Source: a virus (taxonomy: Duplodnaviria > Heunggongvirae > Uroviricota > Caudoviricetes). Taken from it: a DNA stretch of 58,281 nt. The notes under the pieces are model-generated. The model saw only the letters and a list, made by a program, of their open reading frames with translations, had not been told where the DNA came from and did not search any database. Of the stretch, positions 11,620-40,895 are shown one piece after another. The stretch is taken from positions 1 through 58,281 of the IMG/VR virus record IMGVR_UViG_3300012942_000032. One strand, 5' to 3'. Each line of letters starts with the position of its first letter. Positions within the stretch are counted from its first letter, which is position 1. Both the position numbers and the translations under genes were made by a program.

Positions 11620-12851
11620 GTCAAGCTCTCCTCAAGTCTCTTCTTGATCATTTCAAAGTTACAGACATATGAATCTTTATTCAGCATATGAGCTATGGCT
11701 ACGATCAGGTAACGTCCTTGACGTTGCTTATCATATGTTTCCCCAGTCATATCTTCATGTGAAGGTAATTTAACCTGGCAATTCTTACCAATCCATTGAT
11801 ATGCTCCAGCATTACCAGGAGTCTGGATTAAGAGTTTTTCTTGATCTAATTTCTGAATAGCCGACTTTCTAGATGTTTGCCAAATATCAGCATTATCGAC
11901 CACTGTCTGTGTCTTTGCCATTCCAGGATGTTTAGGCATGAAGCTGATATTCGCGTTTTCTGCACCATCACTGAATACAGGATTGTCCCAGGTCTTTACT
12001 GATTTATCGAGCGGAGAATCATCGCCGTATGTGAATACCTTTGTTCCCCAACTCTTATTGATTACGTCATAGCTGGCAAGAGTATTCTTGTAGTAACCTG
12101 ATGACAGATTAGCAACAGCATCAAAATGCTCAAACTGAAAATCAAGAATATTAAGGCTATAATCGTAGACATATTCGCCATTGCTCTTTAGCTCGCCTGG
12201 AGCTTGTTGGAATGTAATGCCTGTAGATTCTGAATCATCTGAATAAAGAAACTCTGACGGTTTCATGATCCACTGATCATTATCTCTTTGGAAAAAGACA
12301 TAATCCGCTGCTCCATCTTTTAGAGCCACTTTAACTAACCAAGAAGCTGCAATAAAAGGTGTCCAATTAGGAATGATAACATGAATTGAATTATCTGATG
12401 GAACCGTATCAACAAAACCACCTTCAAAATATTGAGAGACTAATTGCTGAACTGCATCAGTCGATTTCATGTTGCTGAAAGATCGTTGGACTCTTTTAGT
12501 TTGATTATCTAAGAACGCTTGATCTGCACAGAACACAGTATAGGTCTGTTGCATATGATTCTGAAATTGTTTATCACCAATCCTGTAGATGGTGAATTCA
12601 AACTCTTTCTCTCCATCGCCTGGACTATTGTTTTCAGTGGCGATATCAATTGTTACCTTAGAACCCACCTTAATAGGTAATGTCATCAGAAGATTCGTGG
12701 TATCATTGAAATTGATCTGACACGACCAAGTAGGCGTGAAAATGTCCTGGAAGATTTGAGCTGCCAGGACTGCATCAGAAACATCTTTTCCATCAATAGT
12801 TACGACGAACTTTTTAAGATCACCATATCTACCTGGTGTATTATAAATCAT
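11616..12851 (-). CDS. baseplate hub protein (gp27-like)
   Basis: size, position between gp53 and gp5, GRYLIVAIAH C-terminal motif. Confidence 0.7.
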   Translation of the reverse strand: MIYNTPGRYGDLKKFVVTIDGKDVSDAVLAAQIFQDIFTPTWSCQINFNDTTNLLMTLPIKVGSKVTIDIATENNSPGDGEKEFEFTIYRIGDKQFQNHMQQTYTVFCADQAFLDNQTKRVQRSFSNMKSTDAVQQLVSQYFEGGFVDTVPSDNSIHVIIPNWTPFIAASWLVKVALKDGAADYVFFQRDNDQWIMKPSEFLYSDDSESTGITFQQAPGELKSNGEYVYDYSLNILDFQFEHFDAVANLSSGYYKNTLASYDVINKSWGTKVFTYGDDSPLDKSVKTWDNPVFSDGAENANISFMPKHPGMAKTQTVVDNADIWQTSRKSAIQKLDQEKLLIQTPGNAGAYQWIGKNCQVKLPSHEDMTGETYDKQRQGRYLIVAIAHMLNKDSYVCNFEMIKKRLEESLT

Positions 12852-13390
12852 GGATTCTTGCCTTGAATTGCTTTATTGAACGAATCAACAAACTGGCTGA
12901 TATATTGAGGATTGACGACTAGAATTTCTCTTTTAGATTCATTCTGATCTGTTTCATATTGAAAGTTTGTCACAGGAGAGATATTGAAAGGCAACGTCTC
13001 TCCGTCTTCGATCATTTGTCTATAAAGTGCATCATTTACATCATCTACAAACTTTCCAGAATCAAGTTTTATGAAATGATGAATTCCATATACGTCATCA
13101 TACTTAATGGTGCAGTAATCCTCAAGCTCTTCATCATTCATTGGCCAATCTAAGAACGGATTCACAATGTCATTGATGATGAGAATTGTCCAATGGTAAT
13201 TTGGTTCTTTATAAAGTTCATTAGCAAGAGATTCAGGAGTCTGCCCAGAAGTAATTCTGTAGGTTTGGAACACATAGGTTCGATCTACATTCAAACGTCT
13301 AGGTAGAGCCGCTGTCAGAATGTTTACTGCATCTTTAGAAAATCCATCTACAGAATAGCTAACAGTAGGAAAATATTTGAAGAACGTCAT
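12848..13390 (-). CDS. 53: baseplate wedge subunit gp53
   Basis: FFKYFPTVSY; LysM-like TPESLANELY...YHWTILIINDIVNP..DWP. Confidence 0.92.
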   Translation of the reverse strand: MTFFKYFPTVSYSVDGFSKDAVNILTAALPRRLNVDRTYVFQTYRITSGQTPESLANELYKEPNYHWTILIINDIVNPFLDWPMNDEELEDYCTIKYDDVYGIHHFIKLDSGKFVDDVNDALYRQMIEDGETLPFNISPVTNFQYETDQNESKREILVVNPQYISQFVDSFNKAIQGKNP

Positions 13391-35162: not shown

Positions 35163-35243
35163 TGGTACGCCGGACAGGATTCGAACCTGCATCTGCCTCC
35201 AGTTACCTTAGTCTTCGTTCGTAGCGAAGCTGGTTACCGACGT
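35163..35243 (-). ncRNA. D-armless tRNA-like RNA with an ACG anticodon arm
   Basis: acceptor ACGTCGG/CCGGCGT, A73, CCA; T-arm GCAGG-TTCGAAT-CCTGT; CTTCG-CTACGAA-CGAAG; no D-stem. Confidence 0.8.
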
Positions 35244-36841: not shown

Positions 36842-36915
36842 TGGTGGGACTCCAGGGTATCGAACCCTATTCTACGGGTTAAAGGCCCGTTGCATCACCT
36901 TAATGCTTGAATCCC
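36842..36915 (-). tRNA. trnK: tRNA-Lys(TTT) with C33
   Basis: ACGGG-CCTTTAA-CCCGT; CCA. Confidence 0.88.
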
Positions 36916-37467
36916 GTTTTCATTTATTAGTTTGTAACATTTCGCATAATTAGCACCTTTGCCTGCTAATCCGCAACTTATTAGAGCTTTTCTTATTGAA
37001 GGTTCGCGCCTAAGGGCGGCAATTAATTCTTCATCAGATACAAAGGTTTTCTTTGCTTTATTTTTCAAATTTCTACCACGCCAAGTAGGAGTTTGTGCAT
37101 GGCAGTTAGGACAAAGAAGCTCTACATTATTTCTAGAATTATCATGATGATTTCCATCGATATGATCTAATTCTAATGGTATTTCTTTCTCATTCCATTC
37201 ATAAAGATTACAAACAGAACATCGCCCTTCTTGTTCTAAAAACAACCGTTTCTTAGTTAAGATGTCCTCAGCATGTCCTACTTTGAGTATAAAATACTCC
37301 CAAGGTAATTCTAATAATTCTGAAAAGTGTTCTTGTGTTTTTATCTTAGATCCCCGTGTTCTAGGAGATTCTAACAAATTCTGATTATCTTTACAATAAT
37401 ACTTCTCATGAGCAATTAAACCTGATCTAGTTTTGAACTCTCGTCTACAAAACTGACAAATTTCCAT
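36895..37467 (-). mobile_element. free-standing HNH homing endonuclease with an N-terminal zinc finger
   Basis: CQFC..F...GLIAHEKYYC; CSVC...LELDHIDGN..DN...N..LLCPNCH; 3' end overlaps tRNA-Lys. Confidence 0.9.
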
Positions 37468-37499
37468 ACAGATATCCAAGAATAATATCTGTATTTATG
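37466..37499 (-). promoter_or_regulatory. late promoter CATAAATA plus a start-sequestering hairpin
   Basis: ATACAGATAT/ATATCTGTAT 10-bp inverted repeat reaching the ATG. Confidence 0.75.
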
Positions 37500-37526: not shown

Positions 37527-37675
37527 CGGCGGCACATGCGGGACTTGAACCTTAGCTTCTGATGGCCATCATAGGCTATTTTACGCGACCTGCATCACAG
37601 TACATCATATTTGAATTTTGGTCGACCTTCCAAATACTTCACTCAATGCTACTCTACCAATTGAGCTAAAGTGCC
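37527..37675 (-). ncRNA. 149-nt tRNA-derived RNA with two hairpin insertions
   Basis: acceptor GGCACTT/ATGTGCC; D-arm GCTC-AATTGGTA-GAGT; anticodon stem GCATT/GATGC with a 48-nt loop; variable AGGTC; T-stem GCG[32nt]GG-TTCAAGT-CCCGC; ends GCCG. Confidence 0.8.
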
Positions 37676-37681
37676 ATTGTT

Positions 37682-37773
37682 TGGCGGAGACGGTGAGATT
37701 CGAACTCACGAGACCCTTTCGGGTCTGCCGGTTTTCAAGACCGGTGCAATAAACCAGGCTCTGCCACATCTCC
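37682..37773 (-). tRNA. trnS: tRNA-Ser(TGA)
   Basis: loop CT-TGA-AA; long variable arm; G73-CCA. Confidence 0.95.
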
Positions 37774-37905: not shown

Positions 37906-38099
37906 TGGACAAGAAAGGATTCGAACCTTTGCTGCGACAGCCTACCAGTGCTTGCCTTAATTTCAAATACTGCAAAACTCGCCCTTAGCTTTTCTCGAAA
38001 CACATCAACCCTAAGGGTAGCTGTCTCTAGCGCATTACCGGTCTTCAGCCCATGCTCGCTCAAACAATGCCGGCATTCTCTAGATTAGATGTATCGTTC
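37906..38099 (-). ncRNA. about 160-195-nt RNA ending in a T-arm and CCA
   Basis: AAAGG-TTCGAAT-CCTTT-CTTGT-CCA; GACAGCTAC/GTAGGCTGTC, CCCTTAG/CTAAGGG, GCAT/ATGC; 5' end uncertain. Confidence 0.65.
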
Positions 38100-38104
38100 T
38101 CATT

Positions 38105-38192
38105 TGGTGGGCAGTGATGGATTCGAACCACCGAGCCTTAATAAAGGAGCGCGTTTACAGCGCGCCGCAATCGACCTCTCTGCCAACTGCCC
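38105..38192 (-). tRNA. trnY: tRNA-Tyr(GTA)
   Basis: GCGCG-CTGTAAA-CGCGC; long variable arm; CCA. Confidence 0.95.
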
Positions 38193-38201
38193 ATGTTTCT
38201 A

Positions 38202-38230
38202 ATTATACATTCAGAAAACGCATTGTCTAC
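38202..38230 (-). promoter_or_regulatory. sigma70 promoter heading the tRNA array
   Basis: TAGACA-16nt-TATAAT with extended TG. Confidence 0.7.
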
Positions 38231-39124: not shown

Positions 39125-40102
39125 TTATGCCAGCACCAAGTCCCTGTAAACTTCCAGCTTCTTGGCTTCGAGCGTGCCGTTGTAACTGTCCCAGAACTGA
39201 TGCGACTTGTTGCGGTTGCCAGTACCATGGGTGTAAACCTCGGTCGCACCACAGAGCGCGCCCCACTTGGTTCCCACCGACATTTCAGCACCAGAACCGC
39301 GCATCGCTGCCTGCATCAGCTTGTTGACTTCACGCACGACGCCCCAAGACTGCTCATCAGCCATCTTCGACTCGTCGTAGAGCATCTTCTGGTAGAAGCG
39401 ACGCGTATCAGCTTCAGCCATCGGAGTCTCTGCGAGCTTCTTGATGTTCTTCATGAAGCGATCCCATGCCTTGTCGATGATACCAAGATCAATCTTTACA
39501 GCACTCGGATCAAACTTCTTCTTGTGAGTAACCTTCACAACAGGCTTGCTCGAGATTCCGCTCAGAGCAATCGTCAAGGTGTTGTTGCAGACCACCCGCG
39601 TACTCACGAACTTCGCAGTGGTAGCCATCGAACCATCGACAGCAGTGACCAAGAGCAAGTGGCCCTTGATATGATCGCCATCGACAACATCATCTTCTCG
39701 TCCAGTTTCCGCCAGCGCCCAAAAACGCTTACCATCGTAAAGCGTACCTGCGGTGCTCAGCTTCATTCCATGGATCTGTACCAGGTCACGGAAAAACTCG
39801 ATAACTTCACGCGGCTGGACGATCTCGAAATTGCTACCGACGATGCTCAGAGCCTGTTCGTTATCAGAACGATACAAGATCTTGCGATCGGGGAAGGTAT
39901 GGAAAATGCTGTCATCCTTCTTGGATTCGAAGATAACATCGCCTTCCTGAACATTCCAGTCCATGCCTGCTGCAACAATCCAATCCTCGATTGAGGCGCC
40001 GTCTTGCAGATTGTTACCGAGACCATGCCAGATTGCGCTCCTCGGACCTGTGAAAGCCATCTCCACAAATCCATCTTCGCGCTGGGTCAACTCATGTGCC
40101 AT
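39125..40102 (-). CDS. DUF932 (phage/plasmid TIGR03299-type) protein
   Basis: MAHEL...WHGLG...AGMDWNV...YRSDN...FE.VQPRE...TAGTL..GKRFW.LA...TSVRVVCNNTL-like. Confidence 0.9.
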   Translation of the reverse strand: MAHELTQREDGFVEMAFTGPRSAIWHGLGNNLQDGASIEDWIVAAGMDWNVQEGDVIFESKKDDSIFHTFPDRKILYRSDNEQALSIVGSNFEIVQPREVIEFFRDLVQIHGMKLSTAGTLYDGKRFWALAETGREDDVVDGDHIKGHLLLVTAVDGSMATTAKFVSTRVVCNNTLTIALSGISSKPVVKVTHKKKFDPSAVKIDLGIIDKAWDRFMKNIKKLAETPMAEADTRRFYQKMLYDESKMADEQSWGVVREVNKLMQAAMRGSGAEMSVGTKWGALCGATEVYTHGTGNRNKSHQFWDSYNGTLEAKKLEVYRDLVLA

Positions 40103-40112
40103 GTGCTTCTCC

Positions 40113-40349
40113 TTAGTCGAGCAAAGACTGGAACTTGCCGGCAACACGTTCTGCGTGATCAGCTTCGATATGGTGAGCATCATGCTCCGCCATCAGCTGA
40201 GCTGCCTTGTCCTTCTTTTGCTGCGCATCACCCCGAAGGACCTGAGACAGATCGATCAGTTGCTTGCACTTCAATTCGATGTCACCAACGATCTGACTAA
40301 CGGTAGCGCGAACAGGAGCCAGCGTCGGTTCTTTCCTTCCAAAAAGCAT
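40113..40349 (-). CDS. coiled-coil hypothetical protein
   Basis: GAGG RBS; first gene after the promoter. Confidence 0.7.
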   Translation of the reverse strand: MLFGRKEPTLAPVRATVSQIVGDIELKCKQLIDLSQVLRGDAQQKKDKAAQLMAEHDAHHIEADHAERVAGKFQSLLD

Positions 40350-40700: not shown

Positions 40701-40895
40701 TTAGAGCGGTATCTTGCAACCAGACTCTTTCAAATACTTCAGAACTTCCCTTAACTGTTCTGCATCTTCTATGTGCATGATAAACTTACCAGCTAAAGGA
40801 CTCTTTGCACCATTTGAAATTCTGACTCCAATGTATTGACCGTAGTCGTAGCTCATCACGTCGCACTGGTCAGAAAAATCAAGGTGTTTTCTCAT
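40701..40895 (-). CDS. hypothetical protein
   Basis: ORF. Confidence 0.6.
   Translation of the reverse strand: MRKHLDFSDQCDVMSYDYGQYIGVRISNGAKSPLAGKFIMHIEDAEQLREVLKYLKESGCKIPL

Follow-up and report, generated by a model that had tools for sequence, protein, structure and literature searches.

A 194-nt stretch in the tRNA array of a T4-like soil phage, initially annotated as one large tRNA-like RNA, is best supported as a composite of a 120-nt filler and a 79-nt tRNA look-alike, and not as one RNA gene. We consider it moderately probable that the stretch combines filler in a cassette slot with a non-decoding tRNA relic, the retained T-arm of which most likely acts as a processing point in a precursor that runs from tRNA-Tyr to tRNA-Ser. 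In this explanation the first 120 nt (38104-37985) would be variable filler lodged in a cassette slot right after tRNA-Tyr. The last 79 nt (37984-37906) would be what is left of a tRNA gene that lost its D-arm and anticodon arm and kept its T-arm together with a 7-bp acceptor-type pairing. An acceptor/T-arm minihelix is the minimal substrate recognised by RNase P, tRNA 3'-end enzymes and T-loop enzymes, and because RNase P and the T-loop enzymes recognise such a minihelix we propose that the retained T-arm is most likely a processing or punctuation module at which the precursor would be cut between tRNA-Tyr and tRNA-Ser. Such cleavage would also yield, as by-products, a 120-nt leader and a short tRNA-like RNA.

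The phage and its tRNA array

The IMG/VR virus record has 156,730 bases, of which the window analyzed here covers the first 58,281. The phage encodes NrdAB, DNA ligase, Rnl1 and Rnl2, and its closest cultured kin, as judged by the DUF932 protein encoded near the array (39125-40183), are Stenotrophomonas Menderavirus phages at 57% identity. Its minus-strand array holds 24 tRNA genes and a permuted tmRNA as called by ARAGORN, and runs past the window end. The two-piece tmRNA lies just past the window (G000 59838-60195, minus strand) and has the tag AKTKNVAANDDVYAVALAA, while tRNA-Leu(UAA), tRNA-Val and tRNA-Leu(UAG) at 58682-59802 complete a set for all 20 amino acids. An HNH homing endonuclease gene occurs within the array at 36895-37479.

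A search of a large protein collection with the DUF932 protein returned relatives at 88%, 78% (P0004, JGI 3300067032), 67% and lower identity. P0004 is encoded on a 162-kb contig, with an ORF-free gap of ~1 kb (locus coordinates 11960-12951) following its 104-aa gene. The sole close relative compared as DNA is L014, a 39.7-kb Logan contig with a DUF932 protein 88% identical and a syntenic array that contains GIY-YIG-type genes; DUF932 relatives at 61-67% have different array layouts or no adjacent array. The features discussed below, all on the minus strand, are as follows.

38202-38229, minus strand: sigma-70-like promoter (TAGACA, 16 nt, TATAAT) with 11/12 consensus matches; consensus match only
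38105-38192, minus strand: tRNA-Tyr(GUA), CCA encoded, the upstream neighbor; Rfam 53.9 bits; 86% identical to L014:11943-12030
37906-38099, minus strand: flagged stretch, 194 nt, between tRNA-Tyr and tRNA-Ser(UGA)
37985-38104, minus strand: lineage-specific spacer, 120 nt; holds the GCAU/AUGC strings and the 5' strand of the long helix
37906-37984, minus strand: tRNA-derived relic, 79 nt; Rfam tRNA 24.1 bits, below 29
37914-37930, minus strand: T-arm AAAGG-UUCGAAU-CCUUU, the only part of the element conserved with L014
37774-37905, minus strand: downstream spacer, outside the flagged coordinates; orthologous to L014:12438-12575, downstream flank p<0.002
37682-37773, minus strand: tRNA-Ser(UGA), CCA encoded, the downstream neighbor; Rfam 53.7 bits

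The promoter-like site is inside the tRNA array and directly upstream of tRNA-Tyr, and is likely the start of a transcript spanning tRNA-Tyr, the flagged stretch and tRNA-Ser. With this site and with tRNAs on both flanks, we infer that the flagged stretch is almost certainly transcribed within such a Tyr-to-Ser precursor.

Searches of GenBank phages and IMG/VR found nothing similar beyond tRNA-Tyr, and no homologue of the flagged element was present in GenBank phages, in IMG/VR or in the loci of relatives that were compared. Exact and degenerate DNA patterns for the 3' end of the element, the 3' end of tRNA-Tyr, the hairpin of the downstream spacer and a motif of this spacer gave no hits or only unrelated loci in IMG/VR. 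A search of viral and metagenome contigs for loci related by the neighboring DUF932 protein returned only relatives of 35-44% that have no tRNA arrays, a search based on Rnl1 found no related loci, and no homologue of the adjacent 99-aa protein was found.

Anatomy and folding of the flagged stretch

At gathering thresholds Rfam 15 identifies 21 tRNAs and nothing else in the window. When matches with E up to 10 are admitted the only one inside the flagged stretch is a sub-threshold tRNA, with RF00005 aligning to 37906-37984 at 24.1 bits (E 0.017), short of the gathering score of 29. ARAGORN makes no call in the element at its default setting and only a poor one, of 90 nt and with a loop of 8 nt, at an 80% threshold; its intron mode found no tRNA with an intron. 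The canonical T-arm that was initially described is present, as AAAGG (37930-37926), UUCGAAU (37925-37919) and CCUUU (37918-37914), followed by CUUGUCC-A (37913-37906). The terminal CCA described with it is a misreading, as these letters are C71, C72 and the discriminator A73 in the sole tRNA-like alignment; the discriminator is followed by AUU and so no CCA tail is encoded.

Read in order, the 79-nt unit consists of an acceptor (GGGCGAG/CUUGUCC), an arm at 37972-37946, a mini-hairpin (GCUG-UCG-CAGC, 37941-37931), the T-arm and the discriminator A. The acceptor has seven base pairs, five of them Watson-Crick and two G.U (G3.U70 and G5.U68), and GGGCGAG at 37984-37978 is the sole upstream 7-mer complementary to CUUGUCC. 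Folded in isolation, the 79 nt have as minimum free energy (MFE) structure a four-way junction of the acceptor, a long irregular arm, a 4-bp triloop hairpin and the T-arm. The loop of the D region, AGUAUUUGAAAUUAAG, has no GG at the place of G18 and G19, and the best anticodon-like pairing has 3 bp (AGC/GCU) and an 8-nt loop where an anticodon arm has 5 bp and a 7-nt loop. The unit is therefore without D-loop GG, anticodon arm and CCA tail and, with its D-arm and anticodon arm lost, the relic cannot decode.

Several origins of this unit were considered. When the 5' 54 nt were compared, with the T-arm masked, to 115 tRNAs of this phage, its relatives and T4, no similarity was significant (score 23 versus a null of 19.5 +/- 2.2). 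The best overall match is T4 tRNA-Gln, but the similarity is mostly in the T-arm, and descent from tRNA-Gln was dropped. A split or permuted tRNA was rejected on inspection of the downstream spacer, in which no complementary 5' half was seen. Positions 37961-37995 match 40728-40761, both on the minus strand, over 35 nt at 83% (E 0.002 within the genome). The match covers the 5' part of the relic with its GGGCGAG on one side and, on the other, the 3' end of a 64-aa ORF preceding tRNA-Arg(UCU). Paralogy with this 64-aa gene has no tblastn support at the protein level, and the match may be chance or an old duplication. Small ORFs in the flagged stretch (54 aa with a TTG start, and 13 aa) were rejected as not conserved and with poor start contexts.

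The initial annotation had described 38099-37906 as one RNA of ~194 nt whose ends are tRNA-like and in which a multibranch body takes the place of the anticodon arm, a member of a new class of phage tRNA mimics, and to this reading we give very little credence. It draws on a canonical T-arm and on an MFE fold in which the helix GACAGCU (38025-38019)/GGCUGUC (37942-37936) encloses inner hairpins of high probability. This long helix is real as a prediction, with a pair probability of about 0.99, but its 5' strand lies in the 120 nt that L014 does not have. The same is true of the D-like arm, for which the strings GCAU (38055-38052) and AUGC (38035-38032) with GG between them do exist, but again in sequence absent from the sister phage. 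The proposed 5' and 3' ends form no acceptor stem, since no partner exists near 38099 and no base of the first 60 nt pairs with one of the last 30 nt at a probability above 0.13. Nor is the 205-nt stretch any more stable than its dinucleotide shuffles (z +0.26), and neither of its two parts does better when folded alone, with z -0.11 for the 120-nt spacer and z -0.52 for the 79-nt unit. With the 5' two-thirds specific to this lineage, and with no homologue in the collections and loci named above, a single tRNA-shaped RNA of 194 nt is not borne out. By our own estimate 7-bp helices are expected by chance in 205 nt, and the only features above chance are the T-arm and the 7-bp pairing of GGGCGAG with CUUGUCC. 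A caution for scans of phage arrays follows, as a strong MFE helix in one sequence is not evidence for an RNA gene.

The fold also bears on an alternative that we regard as unlikely, namely that the 79-nt unit is a working, anticodon-less tRNA mimic released by RNase P, a miniature counterpart of the T4 RNA rnaC whose acceptor end (G1-C72, G2-C71, G3.U70, C4-G69 and A73) would match alanine identity as it does in tmRNA and alanine minihelices. The top four acceptor pairs and A73 are indeed identical to those of the phage's own tRNA-Ala. However, the isolated fold is no more stable than shuffled sequence, as its z score indicates, and the acceptor pairing is out-competed in the full-length context. 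In the 205-nt context the tRNA-like fold is 6.1 kcal/mol worse than the rival fold built on GACAGCU/GGCUGUC, and the pair probability of the tRNA-like acceptor is near 0. Because the rival fold is better by this amount in the unprocessed 205 nt, recognition by RNase P is not assured, and this caveat also applies to the processing role that we propose.

The slot after tRNA-Tyr compared with a sister phage

When the window is aligned with L014 by BLAST, nucleotide identity is 68-82% on both sides with no alignment across 38096-37820. The order in L014 is tRNA-Tyr, AAUGAGAA, a 94-aa ORF, a tRNA-like element (~12345-12434), a spacer, tRNA-Ser(UGA) and a 149-nt tRNA-like RNA. The 120-nt spacer of the window also opens with AAUGAGAA, an RBS-like remnant common to both phages, whose GAGAA is the ribosome-binding site of the 94-aa ORF in L014. 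What stands in L014 as the counterpart of the 120 nt is this unrelated, lipoprotein-like ORF (12045-12329). The similarity between the spacer and the L014 ORF region is at chance level (score 10 versus a null of 9.8 +/- 1.5), which led us to drop the idea that the spacer is a remnant of the ORF, and the spacer has no match in the phages collection. The L014 ORF has the lipobox LMIGC and is inserted between tRNA-Tyr and the pseudo-tRNA. Its homologues, all in contexts other than tRNA genes, belong to lysis cassettes in unrelated phages or lie in the chromosome of Dyella solisilvae; one of them follows a Glyco_hydro_19 endolysin in another phage contig (L051). Judged by these homologues in unrelated phages and in the Dyella chromosome, the 94-aa ORF is to be classed as a mobile moron gene or cassette, and the Dyella homologue hints at a Xanthomonadales host. 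The slot after tRNA-Tyr thus swaps cassettes, a lipoprotein moron in the sister phage versus a 120-nt filler here, and it follows that the long helix, by its 5' strand, and the "D-like arm" both draw on lineage-specific filler.

The tRNA-like element of L014 is orthologous to the 79-nt unit by its flanks (upstream p 0.03, downstream p<0.002). In nearly all else it is unlike that unit, as its D-arm (AGCUCAGUCUGGUAGAGCU) is canonical, a 5-bp stem bears the loop AAUCGAG (A33), the T-arm reads GCGGG-UUCGAAU-CCCGU and the acceptor is broken, with 4/7 pairs formed; ARAGORN at an 85% threshold gives it an alternative, weak class II fold. In the window copy the D-stem and ~12 nt of the anticodon-like arm are lost relative to L014, and the acceptor 5' strands of the two copies lie at non-homologous positions. 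Neither G3.U70 nor the acceptor position is conserved in L014, which speaks against a working alanine-type mimic.

The T-arm, by contrast, is common to both copies. Its 7-nt loop and two inner G-C pairs are identical in the two phages, and this 11-nt core is intact though the flanks are only ~55-60% identical. The three outer T-stem pairs have all changed and are all still paired; from window to L014 they read A-U to G.U, A-U to C-G and A-U to G-C, with two pairs altered on both sides and one on one side. As pairing is kept while the flanks are ~55-60% identical, this covariation, which comes from one comparison (with L014) and three base pairs, suggests that the T-arm hairpin is under selection. 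It would follow that a lone T-arm can outlast the decay of its tRNA gene by compensatory change, which hints at a role of T-arm/acceptor minihelices as punctuation for processing in phage tRNA operons. Maintenance of the T-arm by compensatory change also counts in favor of a working tRNA mimic.

A rather unlikely alternative is that the element is a neutral pseudogene or junk, with a T-arm refreshed by recombination or gene conversion with nearby tRNA genes, or derived from independent insertions of tRNA fragments. The region 38096-37820 is the most divergent segment of the neighborhood, the interiors of the window and L014 copies have decayed differently and the array is full of homing endonuclease genes, all of which fit such a scenario. 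Gene conversion with the neighboring tRNAs, all of which carry GGTTCGAATCC, is a possible source of the T-arm identity. Additionally, an orphan in a more distant relative (L031:16987-17062), in an unrelated slot after tRNA-Ala, carries the identical 17-nt T-arm between dissimilar flanks. However, neutral decay is at odds with the continued pairing of 3/3 changed T-stem pairs and with the intact 11-nt core between diverged flanks, and flanks orthologous to L014 on both sides argue against independent insertions. The 3' strand of the L031 orphan, ACGGUCA, resembles a tRNA-Ala end of the type seen in the window; homology of the orphan with the flagged element was rejected as their flanks are not similar (p 0.3).

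The spacer downstream of the relic is better conserved than the flagged stretch. Its core (~37890-37815) is a hairpin or three-way junction kept by compensatory changes relative to L014. The closing helix GUCGAGG/CCUCGGC corresponds to GUCUAAGG/CCUUAGGC in L014, with five inner pairs changed on both sides. A CGCGC-loop-GCGCG hairpin follows at 37800-37785, before tRNA-Ser. The L014 copy of the spacer folds with a z score of -2.4, and the structure has no Rfam match. Thus, from its pattern of substitutions, ~37890-37815 looks like a better candidate for a conserved structured RNA than the flagged stretch. Elsewhere in the array, an anticodon-odd tRNA-like RNA (35163-35243, minus strand; L014:15180-15275) is conserved in both phages, with compensatory changes in its acceptor (ACGUCGG/CCGGCGU versus ACGGCUG/CAGCCGU), and is much better constrained than the 79-nt element.

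Comparison with known RNA families

The T4 record (NC_000866) annotates two such RNAs, species 1 RNA (rnaC, 139 nt, 70908-71046) and species 2 RNA (rnaD, 119 nt, 71053-71171). In T4 a tRNA-Arg ending in CCA-A is followed by rnaD, which starts AUGAGAAAC, and then by rnaC. The locus described here parallels this placement of rnaD and rnaC after tRNA-Arg, as in both cases a tRNA with CCA is followed by a spacer RNA of ~120 nt and then by an RNA that does not decode and joins a canonical GGUUCGAAUCC T-arm to an imperfect acceptor. The parallel is one of arrangement only. In a MAFFT alignment with rnaD only CCAAATGAGAA aligns, and a link to rnaD via AAUGAGAA was rejected as explained by common AAU trailers plus the RBS-like GAGAA. 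Since most tRNA trailers in these phages begin with AAU, the sharing of AAUGAGAA with rnaD reduces to ~5 nt.

Like rnaC, the element comes after a tRNA in the array, and this placement favors a tRNA mimic. In its isolated MFE fold the 79-nt unit also adopts the rnaC topology of acceptor, arm, arm and T-arm, which would point the same way, but this fold has z -0.52, is out-competed in the longer transcript and is not conserved in L014. In contrast to the 79-nt element, rnaC is 139 nt long, strongly conserved and very stable (z -4.6). We built a covariance model of rnaC from five homologues (T4, Moon, PG7, COW86c and KaAlpha) with 47 pairs, 15 of which have compensatory changes. At E up to 10 this model does not match the element and finds only generic tRNAs at 10-20 bits, a result that does not support membership in the rnaC family and weighs against a miniature rnaC counterpart. 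The claim of an uncharacterised class fares no better. A covariance model of the 79-nt unit matches ordinary tRNAs only (20-24 bits), with the L014 orthologue below real tRNAs at 12.7 bits and the L031 orphan at 17.9 bits, and this result likewise counts against a working mimic. We think it improbable that the unit is a functional alanine-type mimic which would be released by RNase P, read by the host AlaRS and T-loop enzymes and present as a small stable RNA. If it were, it would resemble rnaC, or the tRNA-like domain of a tmRNA, in miniature and could, for example, draw off factors that read tRNA acceptor ends by acting as their sink or decoy.

Homologues of T4 rnaC are located at L044:254-405 (Citrobacter phage Moon), L045:254-403 (Enterobacter phage PG7), L046:251-404 and L047:224-371. 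In Moonvirus and Karamvirus these lie between tRNA-Trp and tRNA-Gly without rnaD and are unannotated or called "tRNA-Met", the call in PG7 being 95 nt within the element and that in Moon on the opposite strand and abutting it. The five rnaC sequences together give a well-covarying four-way-junction structure.

Other families offer partial likenesses. The element resembles the tRNA-like domain of tmRNA, or an alanine minihelix, in its G3.U70 acceptor, A73, T-arm and lack of an anticodon arm. However, a CCA tail is absent, as is a tag frame, the lack of which was initially noted, and neither ARAGORN nor Rfam calls a tmRNA there; the tmRNA of the phage is a separate gene at 59838-60195. An alanine minihelix is further set apart by the G3.U70 pair that L014 does not conserve. 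For the Y-RNA-like YrlA (RF02553) the only match is a weak one outside the element (37651-37711, 15.7 bits versus a gathering score of 69). A TROVE (Ro60-type) gene ends a 20-tRNA array in a relative with a DUF932 protein of 61% identity (L032:19779-20972) and would fit nearby Y-RNA-like partners. Theta ribozymes are HDV-like and adjoin phage tRNAs; each is a nested double pseudoknot that starts at the tRNA 3' end and has a catalytic C in J4/2. Kienbeck et al. 2024 (PMC10879173) report them from Caudoviricetes of the gut only, those of Bacteroidota and Bacillota. Like them, the spacer is sequence other than tRNA that immediately follows the 3' end of a phage tRNA, but it is not conserved; the HDV family has no Rfam match here at E up to 10, and P1 pairing was not found by eye.

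The closest likeness is to the tRNA pseudogenes of phage arrays. Like these, the element lies in an array on the same strand as its neighbors, has a perfect T-arm, acceptor-type pairing and a weak full-length tRNA match (24.1 bits), and has, in the sister phage, a degenerate tRNA unlike itself as its counterpart in position. It differs in that its T-arm has been kept by compensatory substitutions relative to that phage, which is unexpected for a long-dead pseudogene. What endures of the initial annotation is a non-decoding, tRNA-derived element with a perfect T-arm in a phage array, one that stays below the gathering score of every Rfam family. Phage tRNA clusters are already known to hold degenerate tRNA-like elements, and among these the flagged one is a weakly constrained singleton without a family. 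It adds, in effect, another degenerate, tRNA-like remnant to those of phage tRNA arrays, here in a slot that changes fast, and as such matters little.
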